From contig NZ_CP061286.1 in assembly GCF_018687095.1 (NCBI RefSeq), forward strand, positions 768,576 to 800,575: 32,000 nucleotides of DNA. Direction: 5' to 3'. Positions 1 to 15,182 of this stretch are shown piece after piece (within the stretch, counting starts at the first letter, position 1; every line of letters begins with the position of its first letter). A program made the position numbers and the translations under genes. The notes under the pieces are model-generated. The model was not told the DNA's origin and did no database searches. It worked only from the letters and a program-made list of their open reading frames with translations. Source of the stretch: Polynucleobacter sp. MWH-UH25E. GTDB taxonomy: Bacteria > Pseudomonadota > Gammaproteobacteria > Burkholderiales > Burkholderiaceae.

Positions 1-45
1 CGGCAGATTTAAGTGGGTGTGTAATAGAGTGTCGTTTTAAACGAC
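1..45 (+). repeat. Right-hand part of the ~100-bp junction element (cut by the window edge), ending in palindromic core GTCGTTTTAAACGAC at 31..45
   Basis: Hand alignment of 1..45 to 7042..7086 gives about 36/45 identities. The 15-mer has perfect 7-bp inverted arms around one central base. Confidence 0.85.
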
Positions 46-69
46 AGAATAAATAGCTATGAAGAATGC

Positions 70-1266: not shown

Positions 1267-1310
1267 AGTTCGGCGAATTAGCTCAGCTGGTTAGAGCGAC
1301 GGAATCATAA
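1267..1310 (+). repeat. attL-like direct repeat: 5' half of the tRNA(CAU) gene up to the anticodon loop, plus 5 upstream nt; a diverged tRNA-like tail follows (tRNA remnant)
   Basis: It is identical to 17817..17860 except for one position (c/t in the D-loop). After ...ggaatcataa the sequence diverges, keeping only weak resemblance to the tRNA 3' half. Confidence 0.8.
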
Positions 1311-1489
1311 CTCGTAAGGTTCTTAGGTTGCCAACCCTTTTCCCAATAAAATCAATAACTTAGAAAACCATGGTTTTCGCCGTGCTACACACCGTGTGAC
1401 ACACCGCCCGAAAAGTACCGAAGAATAAGGCTTTCGTGGAAGAAACCCTTTAATCATATGGCTCAGAGCGGAGGGTGGTGGCGAGATTT

Positions 1490-1504
1490 GTCGTTTAAAA
1501 CGAC
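1490..1504. repeat. Palindromic core copy GTCGTTTAAAACGAC
   Basis: Perfect 15-mer, about 180 bp inside the left island end and 88 bp upstream of the DUF2806 ORF. Confidence 0.9.
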
Positions 1505-1591
1505 GCTATAAATACTCCCCTTTAAATTCAATCAAATTTAAATTCCTGGATATAAACTGAATCAATTGAATGGAGTCGACAAGAGGGTTAT

Positions 1592-2584
1592 ATGACGTTC
1601 CCTGGGGAGCAATTAGTTATCAAGTTATGGGATAGCCTCATCGACAAGGGTGTCGGCTCTCTATTAAAGCCCTGGCAGATTAGAAGAGAGGGGCAGGCAA
1701 TGATTGATGTCAGAAAAGCAGAGATGCTTCAGATGGCTCAAGTTGAGCTGGATGCCCTTGCAATAAAAAGAGGCGAAAAGACTTTGTTGCCCAGCGGTGA
1801 AATTATTGACGTTGATAGTAAGCCTGGAAACCAGTTAACTATTGGGTTTATTAGCGGCAAGTCAATGCAAGCAATAAAAGCTGAAGAAATTAGAAAAGAG
1901 GTCAGTGTTAACAAGGCAATTCACTATGCTGAGGAAGAGTTGTTGCGGGATTCTCAAGAGCCATCAGATAAGACAATTGATGGTGACTGGTTGCTGAGAT
2001 GGAGAGATGGGGCGTCATCCGTCTCTTCTGAGGAGTTAATTAGCTTATGGGGCAAGGTATTAGCAGGCGAATCCAAGGGGCCAGGCACATACTCATTAAG
2101 AACTTTAGATTTTTTAAAGCACCTCAGTAAGGATGAGGCTGCTTTGATTGAATCAATAATGGCATTTGCATATGAAGGTTTTATTTATAGAGGTGACGAG
2201 GAAATACTAAAGGCTAATAACATCACTTTCGATAAGTTGCTCAATTTGCAAGAGTTGGGATTGCTTTCTGGAGTTGATACTTATGGCCTTGAGAAGAACT
2301 GGAGGAGTAGTTCGAAGGATGCATTTACGGTGGCAATTGTTTCAAATGAAAAATTAATACTAGCCACAAATCCAGATTCTGAAAGGGTATTAAAAATACA
2401 TCCAGTTTGTCTGCTGACATCTATAGGTCTTCAACTTTATAGCTTAATAAAAATACCCCCGAATCTTGGCATGATGAATGTGATTGCCGAAAAAATAAAA
2501 TCACAAGGATTTGATGCTCAGGTTGGCGATATTGTGGAAATCTCCGGAAGCAAGATCACATATAAAAATTTAATGCCAATCTAG
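1592..2584 (+). CDS. DUF2806-like protein
   Basis: 330-aa ORF with an AGAGGG RBS. It has the N-terminal LLKPWQIRREG... motif and the central W..LAGE...PG.YSLRTL.FL..LSK.EA pattern that I associate with DUF2806. Confidence 0.6.
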   Translation: MTFPGEQLVIKLWDSLIDKGVGSLLKPWQIRREGQAMIDVRKAEMLQMAQVELDALAIKRGEKTLLPSGEIIDVDSKPGNQLTIGFISGKSMQAIKAEEIRKEVSVNKAIHYAEEELLRDSQEPSDKTIDGDWLLRWRDGASSVSSEELISLWGKVLAGESKGPGTYSLRTLDFLKHLSKDEAALIESIMAFAYEGFIYRGDEEILKANNITFDKLLNLQELGLLSGVDTYGLEKNWRSSSKDAFTVAIVSNEKLILATNPDSERVLKIHPVCLLTSIGLQLYSLIKIPPNLGMMNVIAEKIKSQGFDAQVGDIVEISGSKITYKNLMPI

Positions 2585-2592
2585 GTTTTCTT

Positions 2593-2692
2593 TCTCGGAG
2601 TAGTAATAGATCGTACTAATATTTACCCCAAGTAATACAGGGGTGTAGGGCTGATTAAAGCGGGCGTGTAACAAAGTGTCGTTTAAAACGAC
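2593..2692 (+). repeat. 100-bp junction element copy A (left box GTAATAGATCGTACTAATA at 2603..2621; core palindrome at 2678..2692)
   Basis: Ungapped hand alignment to 6987..7086 gives about 76/100 identities. The ends are conserved, the centre is variable, and the box-to-core spacing is 75 bp in both. It lies just 3' of the DUF2806 ORF. Confidence 0.85.
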
Positions 2693-2734
2693 ATTTTTAC
2701 GCATTTTTTACACTAAAAGATTCAAAATGGTTGC

Positions 2735-4234
2735 GTGGAAATAAAAGCAACCAAATTCAATAGCGAAACTCGCCCAATTATTTCGGGCCTGATTGCTATA
2801 GCCATTTCATCTGTCTTAACGCTGATCTGTACTCCGGCTATAGGTGTGGTGGAGTTAGCCAATATTGTCATGGTGTTTTTGCTCAGTACCTTTTTGGTGG
2901 CAATCACGCTTGGCAGAAATGCCGCCATAGTTTCAGCATTTTCTAATGTGGCCTTCTTTGATTTCTTTTTTGTGCCACCACGATTTTCGTTTTCAGTTGA
3001 TGATGGTCAGTACCTCATTACCTTTTTGGTAATGCTGATTGTAGGTTTGGTGACAGCGCATCTAGCCGCCAAATTAAAAGATCAAATTAAAGATGTATTG
3101 GCTAGAGAGAGGCTTGCTAAGGCGCTTCAAAATTTGTCCCGAGGACTTTTTAGTGCCTCAACCGAAGAGCAAATTATCCAAGTTGCCAAAGCCACGCTAG
3201 AAAAGCCTATTGGTGTTGATATTGAGCTGTTTTTGACTGATAGCCCACAAGAGCTCAAGAAATCCAAGTTTGACTCTCAGGCAATCACATGGGCTATCCA
3301 AAGTGGAAATCGCATCTTTCATGAGATAGATGACTTTGATGGAAGCTCAATCATATTCATTCCAGTTCGTGCTGAATTAAAAACATTTGGTATTTTGATT
3401 GCGTCTGATCCCACTAGATCCATTAGAAAACATGGCTTAGATGATTTACTTCAAACGGCATCTAATCTGATTGCCTTGGCTGTAGCCCAATTACGCTCAA
3501 TCAAGTCTGAAGAAGCCAGCAAAGTTGAGGCCGCTACAGAAAGATTAAAGAGCGCCATTCTTTCATCGTTATCCCACGATCTTCGTACGCCTTTGACAAC
3601 GATGATTGGTTTGGCCGAAAACCTTCAGGCTCGTACCCATGGATTAGATGAAGAAAGCAAAAAAGACCTTGAGACAATTCGAGGTCAGGGAATGCGTTTG
3701 GCAAACATGATTGGTAATTTGCTAGAGATGGCAAGGCTTCAAACACAAGGCCCGACTTTGAAAAAAGAGTGGCAACCCATTGAAGATGTTTTGGGTTCAA
3801 GCATCAAGCACTTCAATGAATCATTCGCAGATAGGAAGGTAGAGCTTCATCTACCGGCCAACTTGCCACCCATGTATTTTGACGAAGTTCTCATTGAAAG
3901 AGTCTTATCTAATCTTTTGGAGAACTCGGCGAAGTATTCCAACCTAGATGCGCTTATTGATATTGAGGTTGCTGTGAGTTCGAAGAGCTTAACCATCTCT
4001 GTAAAAGACTCAGGCAAAGGATTTAATCAAGACCCCGAAAAGCTATTTGAGATGTTTGCTAGAGGCATTTCAGATACTAAGCAAACTGGCATGGGTGTTG
4101 GATTGGCGATCTGTAAAACCATCGTTGAAGCGCATGACGGAAACATATCGGTAAGAAATAATTCAAATGGTATTGGGTCAACGATTGAATTTACTTTACC
4201 CATATATCCATATCCTGAGTTGGATAAACCATGA
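2735..4234 (+). CDS. Sensor histidine kinase, KdpD-like but lacking the N-terminal KdpD/Usp sensor region (DUF4118 TM block, GAF-like region, HisKA, HATPase)
   Basis: It has the FFDFFFVPPRFSF membrane motif typical of the KdpD TM domain, an H-box SHDLRTPL, and G-boxes DSGKGF and GMGVGLAICK. The GTG start lies 43 bp after the repeat core. Confidence 0.8.
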   Translation: MEIKATKFNSETRPIISGLIAIAISSVLTLICTPAIGVVELANIVMVFLLSTFLVAITLGRNAAIVSAFSNVAFFDFFFVPPRFSFSVDDGQYLITFLVMLIVGLVTAHLAAKLKDQIKDVLARERLAKALQNLSRGLFSASTEEQIIQVAKATLEKPIGVDIELFLTDSPQELKKSKFDSQAITWAIQSGNRIFHEIDDFDGSSIIFIPVRAELKTFGILIASDPTRSIRKHGLDDLLQTASNLIALAVAQLRSIKSEEASKVEAATERLKSAILSSLSHDLRTPLTTMIGLAENLQARTHGLDEESKKDLETIRGQGMRLANMIGNLLEMARLQTQGPTLKKEWQPIEDVLGSSIKHFNESFADRKVELHLPANLPPMYFDEVLIERVLSNLLENSAKYSNLDALIDIEVAVSSKSLTISVKDSGKGFNQDPEKLFEMFARGISDTKQTGMGVGLAICKTIVEAHDGNISVRNNSNGIGSTIEFTLPIYPYPELDKP

Positions 4235-4926
4235 GCACCAATCTTCAAACTAAAAAGGTTCTTGTTATTGAGGATGACGCTCAGATTCGAGACCTGATTG
4301 CTAAGGTAGTCAGTGGAATGGACTTGAGCCCCATACAGGAAAGCACTATAGAAGGTGGTCTGAAGATTGCCGCTTCCAATAAACCCGATCTAGTGATCTT
4401 GGATTTAGGCCTTGTCGATGGCGATGGTATCGAGTTTATTACTGGCTATCGTGCGTGGTCTTCAAACCCCATCTTAGTTCTATCCGCTCGCATTGTCGAA
4501 CATGAAAAGGTCAAGGCGCTTGATGCTGGAGCAGATGACTATTTAACTAAGCCATTTGGCACCGCAGAGCTCATGGCAAGACTGCGGGTGTTATTGCGTC
4601 GTCAAAACAAAGCTGAATCTAATACGCCCAAATTTATTTTTGGGGATATTGAAGTGGACTTAAGTAGCCGAAAAGTAAGCAAGGCAAATGAAGAAGTGCG
4701 TCTCAGTAAAACCGAGTATCAATTGCTCAATGTGTTGCTTTTGAATCAAGGCCGTGTTGTTACCCATCGTCAATTATTAAAAGAAGTATGGGGCGGACAG
4801 CACACTGAAGATAGCCATTACCTACGTATTTATATGGGGCATCTGCGTCAGAAATTAGAAGATGATCCAGCAAAGCCCAAATACCTTCTCACAGAAACTG
4901 GTATTGGATACCGCTTAGATATTTAA
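4231..4926 (+). CDS. OmpR-family response regulator, KdpE-like
   Basis: Receiver domain (DLGLVDGDG, KP) plus a winged-helix C-terminus (TETGIGYRL). Its ATGA overlap with the kinase stop indicates translational coupling. Confidence 0.85.
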   Translation: MSTNLQTKKVLVIEDDAQIRDLIAKVVSGMDLSPIQESTIEGGLKIAASNKPDLVILDLGLVDGDGIEFITGYRAWSSNPILVLSARIVEHEKVKALDAGADDYLTKPFGTAELMARLRVLLRRQNKAESNTPKFIFGDIEVDLSSRKVSKANEEVRLSKTEYQLLNVLLLNQGRVVTHRQLLKEVWGGQHTEDSHYLRIYMGHLRQKLEDDPAKPKYLLTETGIGYRLDI

Positions 4927-4946
4927 CTCAAAACAGAGAGAGCATC

Positions 4947-6905
4947 ATGGAAAAAATTATTAATTTTTTTAGAGGCAAGGCATTGGATCCAATGGATCCT
5001 AAGACTCGTCATGCGATCGCTATCATTCCCCTTTTAGCGTGGGTGGGCTTGGGCGCTGATGGTCTCTCGTCATCCTGCTATGGTCCCGAAGAAGCCTTTT
5101 TGGCCTTGGGAGCAAATCATGGCCTAGCTATCTTTCTGGCACTAGTTACAGCATTAACTGTTTTTATTATTGCTTTAGGCTACAACCAAATTATTGAATT
5201 GTTTCCGACTGGCGGCGGTGGATACCGAGTTGCCACAGCCTTGCTTGGATCTAAGGCGGGCTTAGTTTCGGGATCAGCGTTGTTGGTCGATTATGTTTTG
5301 ACTATTGCGATTTCATTGGCAAGTGGAGTAGATGCCGCATTTAGTTTGATTCCCCCAGAGTATCAGGATTACAAACTAATGGTCGAGTTGGGGTTAGTCA
5401 CCTTTCTTATCTTTTTGAACTTTAGGGGCATTAAAGAATCTATTGTTGTCTTGCTTCCAATATTTCTAGGATTTTGTATTACACATGCGGTATTAATTGT
5501 TTATGGCATTAGTGTTCATGCTCCAGATCTTGGCAATGTGATGCCTAATGCGATTGCCAATACTCAAGCATTGAGCGGTGATATTGGTTGGATTGCGGTA
5601 GCAGCATTATTTTTAAAGGCATACTCATTAGGCGGCGGTACATACACTGGAATTGAAGCAGTCTCTAACAATGTAAATACTCTGGCCGAGCCAAGGGTTC
5701 CGCATGGTAAGCGTACGATGTGGTACCTAGCTTTTTCTCTAGCTTTTACTGCTGGCGGCATTATTCTGCTCTATATGCTTTGGGGCGCAGAAAAAGTTGA
5801 TGGCCAAACTTTGAACGCCACAGCCTTTGGAATGATTATTGATCACCTCAATCCAAACGGTGGTGGTATTAATACGATTGCTTTAGCCACAGTTTTATTG
5901 CTAGAAGCTGGATTGCTATTTGTTGCGGCGCAGGCTGGCTTTTTAGATGGCCCTACTGTGTTATCCAATATGGCGGCAGACTATTGGGTGCCAAGACAGT
6001 TTCGAGAGCTTTCAAGTCGTTTAGTAAGACAGAACGGCATCTTGGTGATGGGTATTGCGGCCTTTCTAATTTTGATTTTTACAGGAGGCTCCGTAGCAAC
6101 CTTAGTAGTTCTTTACAGTATTAATGTGTTTTTAACTTTCAGCATGTCATTGTTTGGTATGTCGGTTTATTGGGTTAAACATAGCAAAGACAAAGGCTGG
6201 TTTAAGCATTTTTTATTAAGTGCGGTTGGTTTTATTGTTACGGCATCTATTTTGATGGTCACCATTTATGAAAAATTATTCGATGGTGGTTGGTTAACAA
6301 TTCTTGTGACAAGCGTAGTAGTTGTTCTTTGCTTGTTAACTAGAAAACACTATGAAGCATTCAGGGTTGAGCTAAGCAAGGCGGATGAGGCATTTCCGGA
6401 CAACTTGGTTCAGTCATCAAAGAGTGATATTCCTGCTCTCGATAAAACAAAGCCAGCCGCAATTGTGTTGGTGAGCAGGCATCGTGGAGCCAGTATTCAT
6501 GCCTTGATGTGGGCGATGAGATTATTTCCACACTATAAGAATTATGTGTTTGTTGCGGTTGGTGAAGTAGACGCGAGTAGCTTTGACGGGCATCAAAAAG
6601 TAGAGGCGCTAAAAGAGCAAATGGAAAAATCCATGTCTTACTATGTCGATTTTTGCCATCAACATGGTTTGGCCGCCACTTATAAGATTGGTTTCGGTAC
6701 CGACCCAATCAAAGAGTTTATGAAGCTAACTGATGAAGCCTATCAAGAGTTTCCAAATGAGAGCATTTCATTTGCCAGTAAGTTGCTCTTTGCGAAAACT
6801 AACTTCTTTACTAAGTTCCTCCATAACCAGACTCCATTGGAAATTCAGGAGCGACTTCATTTCAGCGGTCGTCAAATGATTTTGTTACCCATGAGGGTTG
6901 GATAA
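4947..6905 (+). CDS. APC-superfamily transporter with a C-terminal cytoplasmic domain, KimA-like (putative K+/H+ symporter)
   Basis: 652 aa. The motifs FFRGKALDP...GADGLSSSCYGPEE, FPTGGGGY, LLVDYVLTIAISLASG and LKAYSLGGGTYTGIEAVSN match my recollection of B. subtilis KimA (YdaO). Confidence 0.6.
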   Translation: MEKIINFFRGKALDPMDPKTRHAIAIIPLLAWVGLGADGLSSSCYGPEEAFLALGANHGLAIFLALVTALTVFIIALGYNQIIELFPTGGGGYRVATALLGSKAGLVSGSALLVDYVLTIAISLASGVDAAFSLIPPEYQDYKLMVELGLVTFLIFLNFRGIKESIVVLLPIFLGFCITHAVLIVYGISVHAPDLGNVMPNAIANTQALSGDIGWIAVAALFLKAYSLGGGTYTGIEAVSNNVNTLAEPRVPHGKRTMWYLAFSLAFTAGGIILLYMLWGAEKVDGQTLNATAFGMIIDHLNPNGGGINTIALATVLLLEAGLLFVAAQAGFLDGPTVLSNMAADYWVPRQFRELSSRLVRQNGILVMGIAAFLILIFTGGSVATLVVLYSINVFLTFSMSLFGMSVYWVKHSKDKGWFKHFLLSAVGFIVTASILMVTIYEKLFDGGWLTILVTSVVVVLCLLTRKHYEAFRVELSKADEAFPDNLVQSSKSDIPALDKTKPAAIVLVSRHRGASIHALMWAMRLFPHYKNYVFVAVGEVDASSFDGHQKVEALKEQMEKSMSYYVDFCHQHGLAATYKIGFGTDPIKEFMKLTDEAYQEFPNESISFASKLLFAKTNFFTKFLHNQTPLEIQERLHFSGRQMILLPMRVG

Positions 6906-6957
6906 GGCATCCTAGGTTTTGGTTCTATTCCGCCCCGGGCCACCAAGAATCATCAAT

Positions 6958-6978
6958 ACCACCTTCGGGTGGTTTTTG
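6958..6978 (+). terminator. Rho-independent terminator after the transporter gene
   Basis: ACCACC-TTCG-GGTGGT hairpin followed by TTTTT. Confidence 0.7.
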
Positions 6979-6986
6979 ATTTGGAG

Positions 6987-7093
6987 TCTCGGACTGGTAA
7001 TAGATCGTGCTAATAATTTAATTAGACAACACAAGGATGCTGAGTTGATTTGAGTGAGTGTGTAACAAAGTGTCGTTTAAAACGACACTTTGT
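6987..7093 (+). repeat. 100-bp junction element copy B (left box at 6997..7015) ending in a 29-bp perfect palindrome at 7065..7093 (core at 7072..7086)
   Basis: ACAAAGTGTCGTTT-A-AAACGACACTTTGT has 14-bp arms, verified base by base. It sits between the plus-strand transporter cassette and the minus-strand AAA+ operon. Confidence 0.9.
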
Positions 7094-7110
7094 GCTTTAT
7101 GCAATCAGCC

Positions 7111-7407
7111 TTATCCAAATTTAGAAATAACTTCTCCTGTGTAATTAGGCAAAATTTGTAATTGGGCATCGCTCAGATTGATGGAGCGAAACCCTTTTGC
7201 AAACTCCATATCGAACCATGCCAGCCTTGCCTTAGCGCAAAGCTTATTTCCCAAAATATGAAATGAGTCTCTTCCATTCGCAAGCTCTAATACTCCATCA
7301 ATCTTTGACGATCGGTATGAAGCATTGCGAACGCGGATTGCGAAAACATTCGTAACTTGAGTATGTTCGGTTGCAATGGCGCCTTTGTGTGTATGCGGTG
7401 CTGGCAT
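7111..7407 (-). CDS. Hypothetical 98-aa protein, last gene of the AAA+ operon
   Basis: The internal ATG at 7407 is preceded by AAGGAGAG, which overlaps the stop of the upstream gene. The longer ORF-track start at 7479 would overlap the ATPase gene. Confidence 0.6.
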   Translation of the reverse strand: MPAPHTHKGAIATEHTQVTNVFAIRVRNASYRSSKIDGVLELANGRDSFHILGNKLCAKARLAWFDMEFAKGFRSINLSDAQLQILPNYTGEVISKFG

Positions 7408-7417
7408 GGTTCTCTCC

Positions 7418-8089
7418 TTAGAAAGTTGGTTGAGACTGCTTGGTGCGGCGAGCTTGACGTGAAATATTATTGATAACATTTCGTAGCGAGCCGTTAGCGC
7501 CCTTAATTATTTGAATTAACTCTTCGTCGTTTAAAACGACTTCATGATCGGCTGTGATCTTATGGGCTAAAGGCAGATAAGCCTCTGGATCAGCAGCATT
7601 CATTTCGACTAGTACACAACGATCAAGCAGGCCTTTATCCAGCTTGGATACGCTATTGGTTGTTAAAACAAATACACCTCGAGTGGTATTAAGTGATGAT
7701 TTAAGACTCTCTTGAGCTTGCTGTGTCAGCACATCCACTTCGTCAATAATGATGTAGTGCTTACCGCTAGCATTTAATGGTTGGGTCGCAAGAATCTTAT
7801 CGATTGTTTGCGATACCTGTACACCATTAAGGCCTTGCCGGCATCCAATGTAGTACTCGGGGAGAGCTTGGGCTTGACCAGTAGTGCCTACTTCAATCGC
7901 ATTTGGAAGAATGTTGGCCAGAGTTGTCTTCCCAGTTCCATAAGCCCCATATAAAAGTACACCGCTTTTTCCGCCAAACGGTAAAGGCTGGGCGCCACTT
8001 ACAATATCCTCAATACGCAGACGTGACTCATTGCTTCCGTAAATTATGTCGGCAGTGGATGTGGGTTTGAATTGTCCTTCGTTATACAT
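7418..8089 (-). CDS. AAA+ ATPase, clamp-loader (RFC small subunit / DnaX-delta')-like, short form
   Basis: Walker A GAYGTGKTT and Walker B IIIDEVD. The AQESLKSSLN...VLTTN...LLDRC pattern mirrors the RFC/DnaX boxes (SRC-like DRC). RBS is TAAGGAA. Confidence 0.75.
   Translation of the reverse strand: MYNEGQFKPTSTADIIYGSNESRLRIEDIVSGAQPLPFGGKSGVLLYGAYGTGKTTLANILPNAIEVGTTGQAQALPEYYIGCRQGLNGVQVSQTIDKILATQPLNASGKHYIIIDEVDVLTQQAQESLKSSLNTTRGVFVLTTNSVSKLDKGLLDRCVLVEMNAADPEAYLPLAHKITADHEVVLNDEELIQIIKGANGSLRNVINNISRQARRTKQSQPTF
7526..7540. repeat. Perfect palindromic core copy inside the AAA+ ATPase CDS
   Basis: GTCGTTTAAAACGAC read on the minus strand gives codons 184-188, V-V-L-N-D. Confidence 0.9.
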
Positions 8090-8143
8090 ATTTTTTCCTT
8101 AGGATTAGTTGGTGGCAACCTGTAGCAGTTGCCACCAGGTTGA

Positions 8144-8938
8144 TTAAGCCGCTACAGGCTTTCCATCCGCATCATTTGCGGCCTCAATTTCCTTCTTAGC
8201 TTTTGCCTCAATCTCTTTGGATTTGGCATAAGTTGCAAGTAATGCAGCATTAACAATGCCGTCTGAACGTAAAACGGTATAAATCCCATACTTGCCCTCT
8301 GGGGTTTGCTTTCCAAGTAACACAACTTTGTCGCCTGCGTACTCTGCGTCAGCTGTATGTGATAACAGGGCCGATTCAGCGTAACCAATAAATGAGCGGC
8401 CGTCTAAGATCGCACTCATTTCTTCAGCCTTAGCTTTTGGAGGAATAAAAGTTTTGCTCTGAGATAGGCGAATTTCTTGAACCCCACCTTTGGAGGCTAT
8501 CCATGTAGGTAGATCCAAGATGCTTACATTTTGTTTTTTGGCTTCGCGAAGCACAATTGAATAGCTACTAACGCGGCGACGGTTATCCATTCCAAAGACT
8601 GCGCGAAGAACACGGGTCTCTAATGGCGCCTCTTTGTTATAGCGATAGCCACGCTCTTTATAGAAGTTGGCTAATGCAATTGCACGTTGCTTTGCTGCGG
8701 GCGCAGGGAGTTCGCCGCAGAATGCTTTGCATTCCTGTAAAACAGATCCAAGTTCCTCATTGCTTTTGCGAAATGAACCTTGCTCCCAGTGAATGCGAGC
8801 TGCTTCCATTGCATTTAGGGCTTCCACTGAGTAATGCAGAACAGTTTGCTTCTTAATTGCCTCTGGGTTGGCAGCATCATTTGCCGATGTGGCTGATGAC
8901 ACCTTTACTTCAATTGCTTCATTTAACAGTGCTTCCAT
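8144..8938 (-). CDS. Hypothetical 264-aa protein, first gene of the AAA+ operon
   Basis: Long ORF with an AAAGGAAA RBS and a Lys/Ala/Glu-rich C-terminal tail. I do not recognise the family. Confidence 0.65.
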   Translation of the reverse strand: MEALLNEAIEVKVSSATSANDAANPEAIKKQTVLHYSVEALNAMEAARIHWEQGSFRKSNEELGSVLQECKAFCGELPAPAAKQRAIALANFYKERGYRYNKEAPLETRVLRAVFGMDNRRRVSSYSIVLREAKKQNVSILDLPTWIASKGGVQEIRLSQSKTFIPPKAKAEEMSAILDGRSFIGYAESALLSHTADAEYAGDKVVLLGKQTPEGKYGIYTVLRSDGIVNAALLATYAKSKEIEAKAKKEIEAANDADGKPVAA

Positions 8939-8972
8939 GTTATTTCCTTTCGATGATTGATTTAAATAATTT

Positions 8973-8989
8973 GTTGTTTTAGTAACAAC
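8973..8989. promoter_or_regulatory. Inverted repeat GTTGTT-N5-AACAAC in the divergent promoter region (candidate operator)
   Basis: It lies 35 bp upstream of the 8938 start, in the 128-bp AT-rich gap between divergent genes. Confidence 0.3.
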
Positions 8990-9066
8990 CTGATCATCGT
9001 AAGTCGAAATTTTTATGTGACATAATCAAAGTTAAATTCAAGCAATTAACTTGATAAGAAATTAAT

Positions 9067-9849
9067 ATGGAAAGAAATTACCTGGCAAAAATGCCACTTG
9101 TATTTCCGAAAGGCTTTAAATCAGCTCAAATAAGACTGCTCAAGCGCAGCCCTTATTACTGGTGGTGGCAATATCTTCGAAGAAATGAGGCCTACATAAA
9201 GTTTTGCGAAAAAGGCGGTAGAGGTAAGCTTAGAAAGCTTTACGAAGACTTTGGGGATGTTCGTGATCCAGATTTTGGGAGATGGTGGCTAACTTCAATG
9301 GATCGGCATAAGGATGGAGTTAAAAGAGGCGCCTATCTATTTAGAGAGACAACAACAGACTTTGATGTGATTAAGCTAAAAAATAAAAGTGATTGGTTAC
9401 CAAATTGGAATGAAGATGTAATGATCGTTGCAATCAATATGAAGCAAACCAAGCGTGAAATAAAAAAACTTTTTAGTTGGCTATTGGAGGATGAGCATCC
9501 AGGTAAGCCAGGAAAACAACCCATGCGGGAAGCTGCTGCTAGCTCTACAGCAAGGTATAAGTTGCATAGAAACTTTAGCGTTGATAACTTGGAAAAAACT
9601 TTAGCTATTTACGATCTTTGCAAAGAGAACGAAAAGCTGCCTACAAAAGAGCAAAGGAGCTATTGGGAAATTGGAGAAAGCATTCGCTTAGTACCTTCAG
9701 CCATGCCACCAACAGACAAGAAGTATTTTTTGATGGATGAACCAAAAAAAAGACACAACACTATGACTATGGCTGTAAGTAGGTATTACAAGGCAGCAAA
9801 AATCATGATCGACAATACTGCATTGGGTGTTTTCCCCAAAAGCACATAA
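9067..9849 (+). CDS. Hypothetical protein with an N-terminal WWWQYLRRNEAY motif, reminiscent of the DUF6499/DUF2285 (RovC-like) regulator domains of mobile elements
   Basis: 260-aa ORF. The motif resembles the W-E-F-L-R-R-N-P-x-Y signature. Its stop codon directly abuts the stop of the convergent recombinase gene. Confidence 0.5.
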   Translation: MERNYLAKMPLVFPKGFKSAQIRLLKRSPYYWWWQYLRRNEAYIKFCEKGGRGKLRKLYEDFGDVRDPDFGRWWLTSMDRHKDGVKRGAYLFRETTTDFDVIKLKNKSDWLPNWNEDVMIVAINMKQTKREIKKLFSWLLEDEHPGKPGKQPMREAAASSTARYKLHRNFSVDNLEKTLAIYDLCKENEKLPTKEQRSYWEIGESIRLVPSAMPPTDKKYFLMDEPKKRHNTMTMAVSRYYKAAKIMIDNTALGVFPKST

Positions 9850-10416
9850 TTAGACTAGTTCAACAGCCGCTTTCATCTGGTCTGGGCTAGAGTACAAATA
9901 TCCAGCAGTGGTGCTGATGTTGCGATGGCCAGCCAATGACTTAAGAATATGTATGGCTGTACCTTTATTCGCCAATGAGGTTAAAAATGATCTTCTTCCC
10001 GAATGGGAGCTACATCCCTCAAGTCCAGCACGTCTGTAAAGAAAGTGAAAGTACTGCGTAAGCGTATTGGCTGAGAACCCGGCTCGTTTTTGGGTATAGA
10101 ACAAAGGCTTGCTGGTGTCGGTAATGCGTATCCACTTAATGTATTGAGCAATCTCCTTTTGCATACGAGCATTGATATACACAGTTCTGGCGTATTTACC
10201 TTTAGTTTGTTCTGGCTTTAGACGGATTTCATCTTTAATCGTTCCACTGTCGTTTAAAACGTCGCAAATGCGTAGAGCGGCAACTTCTCCCACTCTCATT
10301 CCCGAGTAGTGCGTTAAAAGTAAGGCGCAGCGATTGCGGGCTGAATGCTTGCGTGTAGCGATGTGATCTAGGACCCTGCGTAATTCTGCTGCGTTAAGTG
10401 TTTTTGCTTGTGACAT
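9850..10416 (-). CDS. Tyrosine recombinase, catalytic domain only (188 aa, FimB/FimE-sized)
   Basis: Catalytic residues are recognisable: R in GMRVGE, K in TKGKYARTV, HSGRRS (H-x-x-R), GHRNISTT and the Tyr in AGYLY. There is no N-terminal core-binding/SAM-like domain. RBS is GGGAG. Confidence 0.8.
   Translation of the reverse strand: MSQAKTLNAAELRRVLDHIATRKHSARNRCALLLTHYSGMRVGEVAALRICDVLNDSGTIKDEIRLKPEQTKGKYARTVYINARMQKEIAQYIKWIRITDTSKPLFYTQKRAGFSANTLTQYFHFLYRRAGLEGCSSHSGRRSFLTSLANKGTAIHILKSLAGHRNISTTAGYLYSSPDQMKAAVELV
10249..10263. repeat. Palindromic core copy (14/15) inside the recombinase CDS
   Basis: GTCGTTTAAAACGTC read on the minus strand gives codons 52-56, D-V-L-N-D. This is the same reading frame as the ATPase copy. 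Confidence 0.8.
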
Positions 10417-10529
10417 AAGTAGCTCCCAAAATGTAATAAATAAGCAACTACAGTATGTTTTCTTAGGTTTGGTTTGAGCAACCGAAATCTTCCTACAAAG
10501 ATCTTTCCATTAATCAATGACTTAGCTCT

Positions 10530-10614
10530 AAATGTAATAGTTTCGTACTTCTATTACATTTCGTGGCTTAAATGCCACGGCTAAATCCTTCGTATAAGCA
10601 CACATATTTACCCC
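10530..10614 (+). repeat. Diverged copy of the junction-element left box, with two adjacent hairpins, upstream of the recombinase gene
   Basis: GTAATAGTTTCGTACT (compare GTAATAGATCGTACT) is embedded in an 11-bp inverted repeat AAATGTAATAG/CTATTACATTT at 10530..10561. A CGTGGC-N6-GCCACG hairpin follows at 10562..10579. ATATTTACCCC at 10604..10614 is identical to 2619..2629. Confidence 0.55.
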
Positions 10615-10756
10615 TCAGCTACCCATGTATGCGAGCGAACTAGATCACAGCTTAAACGAATCATTTGATGTCCAAATGGGTCCTGTGCCCATTAAAAATA
10701 GAGCTGCGAAAAATTTATATGAAGTACTTACAGATTCAGGGTGGTGATTTTGCATC

Positions 10757-10774
10757 TATACCCTAGTGGGTATA
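10757..10774. promoter_or_regulatory. Inverted repeat TATACCC-N4-GGGTATA (candidate operator) upstream of ORF 10801
   Basis: 7-bp perfect arms, 27 bp upstream of the ATG. Confidence 0.3.
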
Positions 10775-10800
10775 CTTGAAAAAATTATTAATGCACTTGT

Positions 10801-11238
10801 ATGAAAAATATCAATCAGCTCATAGCTAAGTTAGAAAAAAACTTACACTATAACTTCAGAACGTTTCTAAGTATTGAAGGTGCACTTCCTGGACTGCGTA
10901 AAGCCTTAGAAATCAATGATGGGAACCATGCCGAGAGCAATAATCCGTTTATTAAAAAGTTCTTAGCAACAATGGTCTTTAATTTTGATCATCTAAATGA
11001 TATTCAAGTTGTTCAGAATCAGAATGACGCTATTGAATTTCGATTGATATTTCAATTAAAAGATTCAGTTTTATTTTTTAATGTGACTGTAGATGCAGAT
11101 CATTGCGAGGCATATATTACATATTCAGAAGATGCCAATAGTGGAAATTCTATTCATTTGGAAGATTTATCAGAGCAAGATCTAATCCTCTTTGAGGAAT
11201 ACATTGATTCATTTAATGTCATGCTAGGACTTAGGTAG
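10801..11238 (+). CDS. Hypothetical acidic 145-aa protein, very AT-rich
   Basis: Open frame followed by a GGGCGAA-N5-TTCGCCC hairpin at 11250..11268. There is no clear RBS and I do not recognise the family. Confidence 0.45.
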   Translation: MKNINQLIAKLEKNLHYNFRTFLSIEGALPGLRKALEINDGNHAESNNPFIKKFLATMVFNFDHLNDIQVVQNQNDAIEFRLIFQLKDSVLFFNVTVDADHCEAYITYSEDANSGNSIHLEDLSEQDLILFEEYIDSFNVMLGLR

Positions 11239-11913
11239 TCTTACTTTGTGGGCGAACTGCTTTCGCCCTGTGTTTCGCTCTCGCTCACACTTTTCTTTCT
11301 TTTTGTTTTTTTACTTTTGTTAGATTCAACCTACACTGAGCCTTAAGCAACAGGCTCAGTTATAGAAAAGTTCTTTTGTTGAGTTCTTTACTACACCACT
11401 TATGGCACAACCAAATTGGTTAGGGCGGTTTCGCGATCTCCTTTTACGTGCGGTTGAAATGAAACGCAACATTTACAACAGCAGTAAGTGGCTACCGTTG
11501 TAATGTTTGCAAGTTGCTGTGTAAGGCAGGGCTTGCTCGTGACGCATAGTGTTAACTATCGTCTTGTGCTGATATGCATTCTTGTATCAATTAGCTAGCA
11601 AAACTAACGGCATCCATAGGAATGGGTAGTGATATCAAGTCTCTGCTACTGCCCAGAATTTCCATCCCCGCGATCACCAATGTCCAGGTTTAGGGCGACA
11701 TAACAACTGAGTGTCGCAACTCTTTTATCAGTAGTAACTTAGTACAGGACGGTTATTTGCCTGTTACTAAAGTTATTTAGCAAAACCTAATAAAAGAAGA
11801 ACAAATCTGGCTTAAATCCTTTGGTTCTGGCAGATATTGGCTAAAAGAGGTTGTCCAACCAAAACTTGTGACCATAAATTAAGTGTGCCCATTAACTACA
11901 AAGGAGAAATGCA

Positions 11914-12351
11914 ATGAGCACATTAAACAGTTTGAAAATGGTTAATTCCAAAAAGCCAACTTCCATCCCGCCAATCTTGCAACGTAGAAATAAACTTTCT
12001 ACAAAAGTTTGGGAGCAGATTCAGCTAGCGAAAGCAAATAAAGAAGGTGGCACATTTACTGTGAAAAAGTTCAAAACAGTAAAGGACGTAGATGGCGCTC
12101 GAAAAACTATTGAGCATCAAAAACGTGTACGCCAGTGGTGGTTTGTAGCTAGCGACGGCAAGGTTTGCTTAAACGTTCGCTATGGGAGCCGCGTGATTGA
12201 GTTTGCGAAGGGGAAAACAGCCGTAGAGGTTAACTCCGCAGATGAGCTCATCAAAGCCTTGGAGATCATTAAAGGTGCAGTAGAAGCAGGAGAGCTTGAT
12301 AGTCAGATTGAGCAAGCCAGCGGCGCTGTACGTGCAGGGTTCGGCAAGTGA
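11914..12351 (+). CDS. Small island protein, possibly DUF6641-like
   Basis: Strong AAGGAG RBS. The pattern LNSLK...PPILQRRNKL..K.WEQIQLAKA...WWF...GKVCLNVRYG..VIEFAKGKTAVEV resembles a family I recall from proteobacterial genomic islands. Confidence 0.6.
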   Translation: MSTLNSLKMVNSKKPTSIPPILQRRNKLSTKVWEQIQLAKANKEGGTFTVKKFKTVKDVDGARKTIEHQKRVRQWWFVASDGKVCLNVRYGSRVIEFAKGKTAVEVNSADELIKALEIIKGAVEAGELDSQIEQASGAVRAGFGK

Positions 12352-12357
12352 ACAACC

Positions 12358-12395
12358 AAGTGCTAATACTCATCATAGTGTTAGCACTTTTCTTA
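12358..12395 (+). terminator. Hairpin AAGTGCTAA-N14-TTAGCACTT followed by a T-rich tract
   Basis: 9-bp perfect stem starting 7 nt after the TGA at 12349..12351. Confidence 0.45.
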
Positions 12396-12407
12396 TGGAT
12401 TGATTAA

Positions 12408-12551
12408 ATGAAAACATTTGAAGCCTACGTACGAGCTAATGGCTACGTTGTCAAAACTAGGATCATGGCAAGTAGTTCGCAAGATGCATATTTTTTACTG
12501 ATTGGGCAATATGGCGTGGATAACGTCGTGCATTTGCCTATGGAGGTCTAG
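12408..12551 (+). CDS. Possible 47-aa ORF (below the ORF-track cutoff)
   Basis: ATG...TAG frame read by hand. No convincing RBS. Confidence 0.25.
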   Translation: MKTFEAYVRANGYVVKTRIMASSSQDAYFLLIGQYGVDNVVHLPMEV

Positions 12552-12606
12552 CTGATTTACGCATTCTTTGACTCTCTCCCGCTAAATATAAGAAAAGGAG
12601 AGGGTC

Positions 12607-12981
12607 ATGAAAATGTATGAGATTGCCAATGCAGAAGATCAGCTAGGTTTGCTGCGAATCATTATGAACAATACCTGGAGCGCAATTAGCCAGCAAGCCA
12701 GTAACCAGGCAAAACAAAAGGCGGCTGAAGCAAGTAAACCTAAAGCTAAAGCAACTAAGCCTCCAAGGCCAAGAGCAGTAAAGTTACTTCAAAGGGCTAT
12801 CCCTGCTCCTGTAGCAAAACCAATGCAACCAGTACAGCAAAAAATCACTAAGCCAGTAGCTCAGTCCAAAACGATTGCACCATCACAGCCAAAGACTCAG
12901 CCCACGATTACTACTAGATCACCAGAAGAGTTAAAAATGTTTCAGGCTTATCTGAGAGGTGAGACGCCCAAACCGCTCTAA
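12607..12981 (+). CDS. Hypothetical protein with a Pro/Lys/Gln/Ala-rich low-complexity centre
   Basis: Strong AAAGGAGAGGG RBS. 124 aa. Confidence 0.55.
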   Translation: MKMYEIANAEDQLGLLRIIMNNTWSAISQQASNQAKQKAAEASKPKAKATKPPRPRAVKLLQRAIPAPVAKPMQPVQQKITKPVAQSKTIAPSQPKTQPTITTRSPEELKMFQAYLRGETPKPL

Positions 12982-13061
12982 TAAGTCAAAATCGCGGTTT
13001 GATCAGGTGAATATAGCTTTTATTGATTGACAGATTGTTTGGCTGACAGGCAATGCCTAGA

Positions 13062-13394
13062 TCAATACCTTATTTTGATTCTTGGCATCCATTTAATAGC
13101 TAATCGTTTTGAATGTCTATGCACTTTGTGTTGCTTACGTAAACCAGAGCCAACATTTAAAACCCTAGTTAATTTAATTAATATGGAGCAACCTTCATTT
13201 CTCGCGATTACTTTATAGACAATCCGTGAATGACTATGTGGGCTATGAGTTTTATATTCAGCCACATATTCCAAGTAAGAAACCCTCAGAATATTTTCAT
13301 TGCTTTGAGTAGCGCCTTGTAGACTCTGTTGAAATTTCTCCTGTGCTGATAACTTAGAGTCAACAGAGGTTGGCTTCAATTTCTTAGCTCTCAT
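13062..13394 (-). CDS. Hypothetical 110-aa basic protein downstream of the integrase
   Basis: It has a GAAGG RBS and is on the same strand as the integrase. The palindromic core lies between the two genes. I do not recognise the family. Confidence 0.35.
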   Translation of the reverse strand: MRAKKLKPTSVDSKLSAQEKFQQSLQGATQSNENILRVSYLEYVAEYKTHSPHSHSRIVYKVIARNEGCSILIKLTRVLNVGSGLRKQHKVHRHSKRLAIKWMPRIKIRY

Positions 13395-13412
13395 TGGCTA
13401 CCTTCGTTATTG

Positions 13413-13427
13413 GTCGTTTTAAACGAC
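13413..13427. repeat. Palindromic core copy GTCGTTTTAAACGAC, 6 nt past the integrase stop codon
   Basis: Perfect 15-mer followed by ACACATAC. Confidence 0.9.
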
Positions 13428-13433
13428 ACATAC

Positions 13434-14726: not shown

Positions 14727-14737
14727 AGCTTAATTTC

Positions 14738-14780
14738 GGTGTGTAGGGTTGGGCAACCTAAAAATGTCGTTTCAAAAGAC
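14738..14780 (+). repeat. Degenerate junction-element right part, with degenerate core GTCGTTTCAAAAGAC at 14766..14780
   Basis: GGTGTGTAGGGTTG resembles GGGTGTAGGGCTG of copy A. Like the 13413 copy, the core is followed by ACACATA. It starts 12 bp upstream of the integrase start codon, and the core itself begins 39 nt from that codon. Confidence 0.6.
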
Positions 14781-15179: not shown

Positions 15180-15182
15180 TTT

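Follow-up and report, generated by a model that had tools for sequence, protein, structure and literature searches.

A fixed-length junction element and a recurrent palindrome at module borders in a tRNA-Met-inserted island of Polynucleobacter

An element of about 100 nt most likely marks the seams of gene cassettes spliced serially into a tRNA-side genomic island of Polynucleobacter, an arrangement resembling that of integrons but built from different parts. The element is probably an attL/attR-like hybrid attachment site left by site-specific recombination in a modular mobile island. Polynucleobacter and its freshwater neighbors (Limnohabitans, other Comamonadaceae, Methylophilaceae, and Methylococcaceae) rank with the most abundant bacteria of lakes, and much of what separates their strains lies in genomic islands whose mechanism of assembly is undescribed. 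The junction box and palindrome reported here are sequence markers of cassette starts and ends, and they allow cargo such as defense systems (Pycsar, restriction-modification), transporters, and sensor systems to be delimited and tracked in metagenomes.

The island and its tRNA junctions

Within the window, the 32,000-nt stretch of Polynucleobacter sp. MWH-UH25E DNA analyzed here, a 16.5-kb island (1311-17860) is inserted in the anticodon loop of tRNA-Met. Its tRNA features and backbone genes are as follows.

1272-1310, plus strand: partial tRNA-Met (5' half) ending right after the anticodon loop (..CATAA); attL core and left junction of the island
1311-1504, plus strand: conserved arm of ~180 nt (M-arm), from the tRNA-Met crossover to the palindrome at 1490-1504
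6920-6945, plus strand: tRNA-Phe 3' fragment, T-loop to CCA (motif scan)
6958-6973 (region to 6980), plus strand: tRNA-Phe terminator hairpin and T run (terminator scan)
7418-8089, minus strand: clamp-loader-like AAA gene, carrying the palindrome at 7526-7540
9850-10416, minus strand: sInt, a 188-aa Xer-like tyrosine recombinase (Pfam Phage_integrase, 4e-26)
11914-12351, plus strand: DUF6641 gene (Pfam), third of a trio with Int and sInt
13434-14726, minus strand: Int, a 430-aa divergent tyrosine integrase with the residues R..K..YxxR..T..Y (PHROG integrase, 2e-32)
17822-17898, plus strand: intact tRNA-Met(CAT) (ARAGORN, Rfam), the 5' half of which (17822-17860) is element borne

At the left junction, a native-type tRNA-Met upstream region (~1120-1271) precedes the partial gene, and the tRNA segment is a direct repeat of 17805-17860. 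The break after CATAA is as in locus L053 (compared loci carry L numbers), and matching junctions occur in L052, L011, L077, and L078; six independent loci have the break after CATAA. Two types of tRNA-Met upstream region were seen when loci were aligned. Because the tRNA-Met 5' half at 17822-17860 is element borne, the right junction of the island was placed there.

The M-arm is kept in the window and in the same five relatives (twice in L078). It holds a perfect IHF consensus, AATCAATAACTTA, at 1350-1362; this consensus (WATCAAnnnnTTR) stands at +40 in six of seven beta-proteobacterial tRNA-Met arms, the seventh (L011) having one mismatch, and a Ferrovaceae arm (L061) has perfect matches at +30 and +95. 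An IHF-like motif with at most one mismatch occurs in just 6 of 16 centers of the junction element described below.

The region 6920-6980 is 92% identical to the tRNA-Phe 3' end and terminator of L021, and minimal relatives have perfect tRNA-Phe direct repeats of 42 to 47 nt. This fragment, the tRNA-Met 5' half, and the island-wide recurrence of the palindrome go beyond what an initial annotation of the sequence had described.

Int faces inward from the tRNA-Met end and belongs to a family of 2307 proteins; its Pfam matches are limited to a SAM-like domain, and its first ~130 residues returned no family or PDB match. The smaller recombinase, sInt, aligned to the XerC-like 4a8e, consists of a catalytic domain with the full R-K-H-R-H-Y set and has no N-terminal DNA-binding domain; its NCBIfam Xer-like matches all fall under the cut-offs (69 bits versus the XerD cut-off of 329.6). 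The trio of Int, sInt, and DUF6641 was present in every Int locus fetched, across many freshwater Proteobacteria. Because both recombinase genes always occur together, co-occurrence does not assign Int or sInt to either of the two site types. Family searches of the island backbone returned no recognizable primase, helicase, or polymerase.

The junction element and its recurrence

The initial annotation had pointed to two similar elements of ~100 bp with conserved ends and a variable center, and to a third right half at the start of the window, all of which the profile searches bore out.

1-46, plus strand: copy C, right half alone, cut by the window start; palindrome 31-45
2593-2692, plus strand: copy A; left box 2593-2624, center 2625-2665, right box 2666-2677, palindrome 2678-2692
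6987-7093, plus strand: copy B; left box 6987-7018, center 7019-7059, right box 7060-7071, palindrome 7072-7086

The element thus has three parts, a left box (..CGGAGnGGTAA followed by TAGATCG..), a replaceable center, and a right box ending in the palindrome. Copies A and B (2593-2692 and 6987-7086) align without gaps at ~76 to 80% identity over 100 nt; 28 of 32 left-box positions are identical, as are all 27 positions of the right box and palindrome. A profile made from 13 copies matches copy A at 2592-2697 (E=1e-28), copy B at 6984-7091 (E=1e-26), and copy C at 2-48 (E=4e-9), the right half of copy C being 82 to 84% identical to those of the others. The crossover probably lies between 2606 and 2607 in copy A, where ..GGAGTAGTAA meets TAGATCG.., and between 7000 and 7001 in copy B. 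In copy B the palindrome is extended to a perfect 31-bp palindrome (7063-7093). The backbone of the island has this copy as its conserved left-hand border, and a matching element stands at the equivalent border in L054 (10962-11066) and L055 (1035-1142).

Other annotated relatives of the element fared less well. At 14738-14780, described as a shortened version, a weak right-box similarity remains (E=0.005), but the palindrome is degenerate, with two mismatches; the profile search found nothing at 10533-10614, where a diverged left box had been proposed. The shared sequence CTAGGTTTT precedes both copies A and B but is not a feature of other copies.

Polynucleobacter genomes and freshwater metagenomes yielded 16 distinct full copies (E=1e-16 to 1e-30). 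Spacing was constant in all 16, and the span from left box to core was 89 to 90 nt in eight of eight metagenome matches, in a pattern search that permitted 74 to 104. Two pairs of elements share 93% identity amid unrelated flanks: copy L011a (of L011) and L052 match over exactly 100 nt, L049 and L053 over 102 nt. The element is therefore a discrete unit, and its length is fixed. Almost no variation is seen in the left box (~32 nt) or in the right box plus palindrome (~35 nt), and conservation is one sided, beginning ~13 nt left of the putative crossover and continuing ~85 nt rightward to the palindrome. The genome scan placed the element at one or two loci per genome, all in islands, and profile and core-motif scans of the 14.3 kb of core sequence in the window turned up no copy. 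The three window copies (C, A, and B) share one orientation, as do the pairs in L054 and L011, and of 13 informative cases, 11 have the element within ~110 nt 3' of a co-oriented gene or tRNA. The expectation that it would lie 3' of genes or operons and near recombinase genes was thus upheld, in same-orientation arrays beside such genes.

The palindrome and exchange of modules

The palindrome, TGTCGTTTwAAACGACA, is a contiguous 8-1-8 dyad of 17 bp with a free central base. Its 15-nt core GTCGTTTAAAACGAC, allowing at most two mismatches, occurs at 31, 1490, 2678, 7072, 7526, 10249, 13413, 14766, and 17686, nine sites in the first 17.7 kb versus 0.03 expected from shuffles; the same scan found none after 17700, in the remaining 14.3 kb. 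It is confined to islands and is present in those of several proteobacterial families; as a site distinct from the element, it is much more widely distributed. Every arm ends in it, and it is also found by itself, both between backbone genes and within them.

7526-7540, unstranded: in the 3' portion of the clamp-loader-like AAA gene, encoding VVLND
10249-10263, unstranded: inside the sInt gene, encoding DVLND
13413-13427, unstranded: 7 nt past the Int stop codon; border of the Int module
14766-14780, unstranded: degenerate palindrome GTCGTTTCAAAAGAC, 40 nt upstream of the Int start codon; border of backbone and variable cargo
17686-17700, unstranded: 136 nt upstream of tRNA-Met; border of cargo and the element-borne tRNA-Met 5' arm

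These placements recur. The palindrome is at the equivalent place in AAA homologues 58 to 77% identical (L025, L031, and L054), is kept within sInt in L054, L055, L056, L058, and L062, lies 118 to 190 nt upstream of tRNA-Met in L050, L055, L056, and L057, and follows the DUF6641 stop codon within 12 nt in L034, L047, L043, and L005. A symmetric variant, GTCCTTTAAAAGGAC, occurs four times in Ferrovaceae islands. Islands without the palindrome are minimal (6 to 7.6 kb), and islands with it carry cargo.

Comparison with relatives places the element between exchangeable modules, in keeping with its annotation as an inter-cassette junction. Seventeen of 129 internal homology ends fell within 5 nt of a palindrome, where 1.2 would be expected and none of 200 randomizations gave more than 5; these counts are biased in that most compared loci were gathered by the palindrome pattern. 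At copy A, homology between the window and L077 ends 2 nt past the palindrome, that with L078 ends in the left box (2619), and homology of the HK operon to L021 begins within the palindrome, at 2682. Homology to L056 and L061 begins at 13410, near the palindrome of the Int module; the backbone similarity shared with L054, L055, and L056 stops around the degenerate palindrome (at 14780, 14785, and 14772, respectively), and homology to L055 and L056 resumes at 17683, near the palindrome at 17686. The cargo between Int and tRNA-Met differs among the window, L054, L055, L056, and L057 and is palindrome bounded in all of them. Int shares only ~49% protein identity with its counterpart in L062, yet the neighboring DNA is 88 to 90% identical, indicating that Int has been swapped, and the backbone is inverted between lineages with a palindrome at each end.

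Left boxes also coincide with breaks. One cassette, 92 to 98% identical in L053, L050, and L010, is followed by three different centers, identity stopping after ..CGGAGCGGTAATAGATCG. In L078 and L079, which are two contigs of one independent sequence, a second tRNA-Met attL arm directly adjoins CTCGGAGTGGTAA, the join falling at the position of the crossover after CATAA, and a Pycsar cassette that is absent from the window and L077 lies between the two arm copies.

Module borders could coincide with palindromes for another reason if the palindrome were the operator of a dimeric island regulator, comparable to KorA/KorB of IncP plasmids, and the element a composite regulatory region whose borders are the ends of transcription units. 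We consider such an operator network unlikely. Its appeal lies in the sequence information of the palindrome, which is contiguous and dyad symmetric over 17 bp about a free central base, and in the position of six of the nine window palindromes ~20 to 140 nt upstream of a gene start (40 nt for Int, 19 nt for o13062, 43 nt for the kinase gene, and 88 nt for DUF2806). The two palindromes inside genes are tolerated, one of them (7526) is overlapped by a promoter-like match, and the Ferrovaceae variant alters both half-sites symmetrically, as for a dimer coevolving with its site. However, homology ends lie 0 to 5 nt from the palindrome at more than 10 independent junction types instead of being dispersed over intergenic space, cargo blocks are flanked on both sides with one more palindrome per extra block, and palindromes also stand between convergent genes with no promoter (L047, L025, and L013). 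Family searches identified no DNA-binding regulator in the backbone, and both the left-box break and the hybrid junction of L078 would be left unexplained.

Still less probable is that the mosaic arose by homologous recombination at short repeats, through RecA-dependent or homology-facilitated exchange (for example, in natural transformation), the boxes and palindrome being conserved for some other reason. The two nearly invariant blocks of ~32 and ~35 nt are long enough to anchor exchange, breaks occur at both, and assemblies break at these repeats. Since the left box and palindrome (17 to 32 nt) can seed homologous recombination, the mosaic breaks are no proof of a dedicated enzyme. Such exchange would not explain sequence conservation across Beta- and Gammaproteobacteria, however, and it fits poorly with stand-alone palindromes, which offer only 17 bp of identity, and with the L078 junction, where the three shared nucleotides (TAA) are far too few.

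Proposed assembly of the island and comparison with known systems

Our preferred reading is that the element is a hybrid attachment site. Under this model, the left box would be a crossover core imitating the anticodon arm of tRNA-Met (CGGAATCATAA before the crossover, TCCG after it), the 13 nt to its left would be the 3' end of the upstream cassette, and the ~85 nt to its right (center, right box, and palindrome) would form a one-sided arm of the downstream unit. Circular cassettes lacking an integrase may carry core and arm and be inserted in trans by an island integrase, most likely Int, with a core already in place (the tRNA or a left box) as the target. One junction element would be gained at each insertion, and cassettes would for that reason accumulate in one orientation. 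The palindrome would bind a dimeric island protein, and its likeliest role is that of a second recombination site, on which sInt may act; such a role would explain the palindrome-flanked cargo blocks, the Int-module swap, and the inversion of the backbone. It is conceivable, though rather doubtful, that freshwater Proteobacteria possess in this form a second, non-integron cassette platform, a tRNA-inserted island with an anticodon-arm-mimicking core, at which Int stacks integrase-less cassettes, and a palindrome for sInt, at which modules, the Int gene included, are inserted, swapped, or inverted.

The putative core shares its crossover position with the primary attB in the tRNA, as the L078/L079 junction after TAA indicates in one independent sequence. 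Several observations count against the attachment-site reading. The left box resembles the anticodon arm over a short stretch (8 of 12 positions: CGGA, TAA, and T), and the 7-nt overlap regions differ (GCGGTAA versus ATCATAA), which would hinder classical tyrosine-recombinase exchange. Toward the cassette, the left box has no conserved arm. As for the palindrome, its contiguous 8-1-8 form resembles an operator as much as a recombination core, and recombination at the gene-internal copies would be destructive, which counts against its use as a recombination site.

Lambda-type arm-dependent tyrosine integrases leave attL/attR hybrid sites, and elements without an integrase accrete in tandem at one att site, as in CIME/ICE accretion (ICESt1/ICESt3). 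In common with these systems, the island as read here has a short core shared with the tRNA target, a fixed-length arm on a single side, an IHF consensus between the core and distal sites in the tRNA-Met arm, att-type junctions between serially inserted units, and one integrase serving units that lack their own. Unlike in these systems, the internal cores are not tRNA copies; they are a dedicated box of ~30 nt in which CGGAnnnnTAAT is the only part of the anticodon arm retained. In addition, the island element replaces the tRNA 5' half instead of the 3' half, and its arm terminates in a perfect palindrome that is also found alone across the island.

The simple dyad core of the palindrome, with a center of ~7 bp (11-7-11 in copy B), is reminiscent of Xer/pdif systems, as is the Xer-like sInt. 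The Xer sites cer and psi have one-sided accessory sequences, and pdif modules occur on Acinetobacter plasmids; here, too, accessory DNA lies on one side of the core and modules occur in varied contexts, breaking at the sites. Yet the palindrome is perfect and bears no relation to dif, the N-terminal DNA-binding domain is missing from sInt, and the sites belong to an island in the chromosome rather than to plasmids. The palindrome was rejected as a Xer/dif site proper (28 bp, with distinct XerC and XerD arms and a 6-bp center), given its symmetric 8-1-8 form and the 69 bits of sInt against 329.6.

In being tRNA proximal and in having streamlined planktonic hosts, the island resembles tycheposons and additive flexible genomic islands (10.1101/2020.12.28.424599; PMC10872708), of which tRNA-Met is among the targets (10.1101/2020.12.28.424599; PMC10872708). 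As in tycheposons, a tyrosine recombinase at one end faces inward, partial tRNAs lie at the borders, and cargo and defense genes are stacked; the window has this layout in its tRNA-Met 5' half at 1272-1310, its intact tRNA at 17822, and Int pointing inward from the tRNA end. Partial tRNAs are the sole repeats described for tycheposons and additive islands (10.1101/2020.12.28.424599; PMC10872708), and the tycheposon text as searched does not mention a palindrome. Unlike tycheposons, the window island has a second short recombinase, a DUF6641 hallmark, a junction box, and the 17-bp palindrome.

An RNA reading, in which the element is a small RNA or a 3' untranslated region or leader transcribed with its cassette, the ends and a central stem-loop being RNA features, appears very improbable. 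A 6-bp central stem, chosen by eye from the very sequences tested, had 14 paired cells changed on both sides versus 6.1 +/- 2.1 in shuffled alignments (0 of 500 reached this value) and paired at 72% versus 28 to 47% with the partner slid, and the element does come after co-oriented genes. Against this, RNAalifold gave only -6.7 kcal/mol and no compensatory pairs, Rfam returned no match even at E<=1, promoters or terminators were not consistent among copies, and folding z-scores were modest and due mainly to the palindrome. Fixed length and replacement of the whole center fit a DNA architecture better.

The likeness to integrons is one of organization. As in integron arrays, there is one site per cassette 3' end in a single orientation, with conserved ends and a variable center; cassettes lack recombinases, carry varied cargo including defense genes, and enter beside the integrase gene. 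Unlike in integrons, whole operons and genes in either orientation may be held in a cassette, and the platform is itself a mobile island in a tRNA. The initial annotation had called the element formally attC-like while noting that attC signatures were lacking, and that lack stands: there is no RYYYAAC/GTTRRRY pair, no folded single-strand site, and no IntI, in that sInt reaches 40 bits with the integron-integrase model TIGR02249, where the cut-off is 265, and Int is matched by no integron model. In the single-strand folding that it proposed, with both strands of four copies folded as DNA, and in a 13-copy consensus fold, there was no R''/R' complementarity and no end-to-end hairpin, only a palindrome hairpin and a small central stem with the ends unpaired. 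Hybrid-site anatomy, with a short cassette-side core and the ~85-nt arm opposite, fits better than attC. An integron attC, MITE, or REP element is scarcely credible, since the short, discrete, repeated unit with its conserved ends and one same-orientation copy 3' of each cassette is of fixed length, lacks target-site duplications and terminal inverted repeats (the termini TCTCGGAG... and ...AAACGAC do not mirror each other), is restricted to one or two island loci per genome, and has no associated transposase or RAYT. The element as attC, MITE, or known RNA is contradicted by the IntI, folding, inverted-repeat, copy-number, and Rfam tests.

If the attachment-site reading is true, these islands would represent integron-like stockpiling of genes by a different recombinase at double-stranded, arm-type sites. 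It would also give a function to three orphans that accompany the island: the large integrase family (>2300 proteins), DUF6641, and the Polynucleobacter-1 RNA motif.

Copies of the element and distribution of its palindrome

The two segments that the initial annotation had paired as copies of a roughly 100-nt element, 2593-2692 (copy A) and 6987-7086 (within copy B, 6987-7093), align without gaps at about 76 to 80% identity. Their proposed organization was also borne out, in that the left box, TCTCGGAnTnGTAATAGATCGTnCTAATA, is near-identical in copies A and B and the 27-nt right box is identical, with the centre differing between them. A further right half, placed at the start of the window, was found again at positions 2-46 (copy C, truncated by the window edge). 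A profile built from 13 copies recovered copies A and B in the window at E=1e-28 and E=1e-26, respectively, and copy C at E=4e-9. The profile search gave no match at 10533-10614, where a diverged left box had been suggested, and the "shortened version" in front of the integrase gene retains weak right-box similarity (E=0.005) but is a degenerate palindrome only. The motif CTAGGTTTT, said to precede both copies, does so in the window but is missing from other copies and was therefore treated as a local feature. Copy B corresponds to copy A plus a 63-nt tRNA-Phe fragment/terminator. When metagenomes were scanned for the left box followed by 40 to 70 nt and the core, eight loci matched the full element, all with a spacing of 55-56 nt; the metagenome scan, genome matches, and later loci together provided 16 distinct full copies.

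The element ends in a 15-nt palindrome, GTCGTTTAAAACGAC (PAL; individual sites are named by start coordinate). Allowing up to two mismatches, PAL occurs at nine sites between positions 31 and 17700, compared with a shuffle expectation of 0.03, and at none in the remaining 14.3 kb of the window. The consensus of 118 distinct sites is TGTCGTTTnAAACGACA, with the central base free, and in copy B the palindrome is extended to a perfect 31 bp with 11-7-11 geometry. A genome scan with a 19-nt pattern identified 47 PAL loci, one or two per genome and about 35 of them in freshwater Proteobacteria, the hosts including many Polynucleobacter species, Comamonadaceae/Limnohabitans, Methylococcaceae, Methylophilaceae, Gallionellaceae, and Dechloromonas; a scan of viral contigs yielded no PAL. 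With respect to tRNA-Phe, PALs are positioned 34-36 nt before 3' fragments and 56-130 nt after terminators. The Ferrovaceae island L061 has four copies (1459, 1887, 4546, and 8098) of a variant, GTCCTTTAAAAGGAC, in which the two half-sites have changed symmetrically, and a mixed palindrome, GTCGTTTTAAAGGAC, lies beside tRNA-Met in loci L057-L059 (L057 5273).

The tRNA-Met island and its genes

Principal features of the island

1255-1310: repeated tRNA-Met 5' half with 17 nt of upstream sequence
6920-6980: tRNA-Phe 3' fragment and terminator, just before copy B
9850-10416 (-): sInt, 188-aa tyrosine recombinase, catalytic domain only, full R-K-H-R-H-Y set
13434-14726 (-): Int, 430-aa, divergent tyrosine integrase
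17822-17898: tRNA-Met
Other window genes: DUF2806; kinase/regulator/permease operon; clamp-loader-like AAA protein; DUF6641

The DUF2806 protein is 100% identical to one of strain MWH-UH25E and the window carries a Polynucleobacter-1 RNA, both of which assign the window to Polynucleobacter.

The partial tRNA-Met ends exactly after the anticodon-loop CATAA in the window and in L053, L052, L011, L077, and L078. Upstream of it (about 1120-1271) the sequence is of the native type found in L012 and L050, whereas the intact tRNA-Met is preceded by element-type sequence with a PAL at -136. The CATAA break and the two types of upstream region indicate that 1311-17860 is a single composite insertion in the anticodon loop of tRNA-Met, one that replaces the 5' half of the gene with its own. 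A conserved arm of about 180 nt (the M-arm), bearing a perfect IHF consensus at +40, extends from the crossover to PAL 1490. Outside this arm, in the stretch separating copy C from the displaced tRNA-Met half, a 242-aa MFS_MOT1/sulfate-permease-like open reading frame (-) abuts a 93-aa HD-domain open reading frame (+) at 70-1078, both resembling gene fragments.

The protein family that includes Int has 2307 members, and the trio of Int, sInt (188-199 aa), and DUF6641 was present in all Int loci fetched, often together with the AAA module. Minimal islands (L064, L066, and L060) measure 6-7.6 kb and are without PAL, and at their borders a tRNA-Phe half beginning at the anticodon loop is repeated perfectly over 42-47 nt; PAL-bearing islands are larger and carry cargo.

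Several smaller features of the backbone and cargo were observed. Polynucleobacter-1 RNA (RF01718) is a component of the island backbone (window 11583-11722, minus strand; L047 3563-3698; L008 1229-1366; L054 6192-6325), always divergent from DUF6641 and about 190-230 nt upstream of it, and could serve that gene as a leader or regulator instead of being a chromosomal sRNA. Directly after the DUF6641 stop codon (12358-12389) is a hairpin with a 13-bp stem, AAGTGCTAATACT...AGTGTTAGCACTT, and a T run; PAL occupies this position in relatives, and the outer bases of the hairpin, AAGTG...CACTT, match the extended PAL arms. PAL itself was ruled out as an intrinsic terminator by its AT-rich stem and inconsistent T run. 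Two PALs lie in frame within genes, one in the AAA gene (7526-7540, VVLND) and one in recombinase box I of sInt (10249-10263, DVLND). The former codons are kept in AAA homologues only 58% identical and the latter, at the same codons, in islands with Int only about 50% identical; such codon-level retention implies DNA-level selection within coding sequence. The cargo gene between Int and tRNA-Met (15183-16988, plus strand) may be a defence gene: its 601-aa product contains CapR-homology domains besides four DUF4379 zinc-ribbon repeats and weakly matches an MTES_1575/homing-endonuclease-like nuclease. Equivalent slots in related islands hold Pycsar, LlaJI-type restriction, methylase/helicase, and AAA_15+HNH systems.

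Homology breaks at the palindrome and in the left box

Homology between loci ended within 5 nt of a PAL at 17 of 129 internal ends, compared with 1.2 expected and a maximum of 5 in 200 randomisations, a count that takes in the L053, L050, and L010 ends, which really fall in the left box, and whose underlying frequencies are biased because most loci were collected with PAL patterns. The backbone, whose left border in the window, L054, and L055 is the element, ceases to match L054 at 14780, L055 at 14785, and L056 at 14772, each position being at PAL 14766 or inside it, and tRNA-side homology begins at 17683, beside PAL 17686. Cargo between these PALs is different in all five related islands and in L055 consists of two blocks with a third PAL between them. 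The Int module extends from PAL to PAL (window 13410-14772) in the comparison with L056, homology of the kinase operon with L021 begins inside PAL 2678, and homology with L077 ends 2 nt past the same site. Between the window and L062, DNA identity is 88% for the DUF6641 block and 90% for sInt, and the protein identity of Int is only about 49%, consistent with Int having been swapped relative to its neighbours. The segment o7111-AAA-sInt-DUF6641 (o7111 being a window open reading frame) has the same orientation relative to Int in the window, L054, L055, L056, and L062 and is reversed in L061, L058, L025, L060, L064, L066, and L067, with PALs at both segment ends. These patterns suggest that PAL is also a junction. 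An operator role is a live alternative, favoured by the shape of PAL and its frequent location upstream of genes, but it leaves unexplained why cargo is flanked by PALs, why the breaks are so precise, and why PAL occurs between convergent genes.

The element also behaves as a discrete unit. Identity is 93% both between loci L011a and L052, across exactly 100 nt, and between L049 and L053, across 102 nt, each pair with unrelated flanks on both sides. A five-gene cassette 92-98% identical in L053, L050, and L010 bears three different element centres, its identity ending after ..CGGAGCGGTAATAGATCG; a break at PAL in this cassette was considered and discarded, as the high-identity stretch ends in the left box and BLAST had carried on across the conserved right box. 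Likewise, the DUF2806 units of the window and L078 cease to match at 2619, within the left box.

In the window and L077, the order is displaced tRNA-Met half / M-arm, PAL, DUF2806, and element, without Pycsar. In L078 and L079 it is displaced tRNA-Met half / first M-arm, PAL, Pycsar genes, CTCGGAGTGGTAA / second M-arm, DUF2806, left box / arm, and backbone. The second M-arm is fused to the 5' half of a left box directly after TAA, the position equivalent to the end of CATAA in the tRNA, and the left box and anticodon arm have CGGAnnnnTAAT in common (CGGAGCGGTAA/T versus CGGAATCATAA/T). Such an order would result if a circular Pycsar unit carrying a left-box half / M-arm junction recombined with the resident junction of the displaced tRNA-Met half and M-arm. 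The discrete-unit behaviour, the left-box breaks, and this hybrid junction, which is represented by one sequence, led us to read the element, with moderate confidence, as an attL-like hybrid attachment site. On this reading, the upstream cassette contributes the 13 nt that lead up to the crossover, and the roughly 85 nt beyond it (centre, right box, and PAL) are an arm brought by the downstream unit.

Homologous exchange at the conserved boxes could account for some of the mosaics, but the L078 junction, which shares TAA alone, cannot arise in this way. In favour of an RNA, the 6-bp central stem shows more compensatory changes than shuffles do; however, that stem was picked by eye, RNAalifold does not recover it, and there was no Rfam match for the element at the gathering threshold on the window or at E<=1 on three loci. 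Identity with an integron attC site, to whose organisation the initial annotation compared the element, is rejected, since single-strand folding of both strands produced no structure beyond the hairpin of the palindrome and a small stem in the centre, the ends do not pair, element length is fixed, and IntI is absent. A MITE or REP is ruled out, as the element has no inverted ends and is confined to islands.

Candidate enzymes, related systems, and tRNA-Phe arrays

Site geometry and the presence of two enzymes suggest that Int would act on the anticodon-type cores and sInt on PAL; possibly, PAL is simply an arm-type or accessory binding site. Co-variation did not link PAL to either enzyme, as both genes are in every locus and the identity of neither follows site type. 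In the search for a PAL-binding protein, Pfam, NCBIfam, and PHROGs had no match for o7111, o8144, o9067, o10801, o12607, or o13062, and PADLOC had none for the first four of these. Sequence searches of the PDB with Int, DUF6641, o8144, and o9067 gave no match, and the AlphaFold model of DUF6641 (pLDDT 75.5) had no PDB fold match at E<0.4.

Full-text literature searches on the motif, on DUF6641/PF20346, and on Polynucleobacter islands or cassettes yielded no description; the motif, the junction box, and DUF6641 are absent from the searchable literature, and palindromes are unmentioned in the tycheposon text. Judged by the features tested, the system belongs to none of the integron, Xer/dif, and MITE families. 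Its function recalls integron cassette arrays and the way in which units lacking an integrase accrete at att sites, and its setting recalls tycheposons and additive islands (10.1101/2020.12.28.424599; PMC10872708). We regard it as a set of site-specific recombination modules in tRNA-linked islands, with moderate confidence in the mechanism.

Arrays of small, integrase-less units were also observed 3' of tRNA-Phe in many genomes (window 6920-6980; L001, L006, L008, L034, L039, L060, and L066). Their units are separated by tRNA-Phe 3'-end repeats running from the T-loop to CCA and sometimes including the terminator, as in L066, where a 1.9-kb Na+/H+ exchanger unit lies between perfect 53-nt repeats; these repeats are a third junction type of the islands. 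For the P0044 islands (L068-L076), 8 of 10 metagenome assemblies have a contig that breaks off within tRNA-Phe, some 250 nt upstream of the same integrase gene, which is what a population heterogeneous at this junction would give. The 3' side of tRNA-Met is occupied in two loci: L056 (1-8534) has there a second, PAL-free island of the trio family with Int 33% identical, the 5' side of the same tRNA holding the PAL-bearing island, and in L057 the 3' side is taken by a P4-like integrase/primase island.
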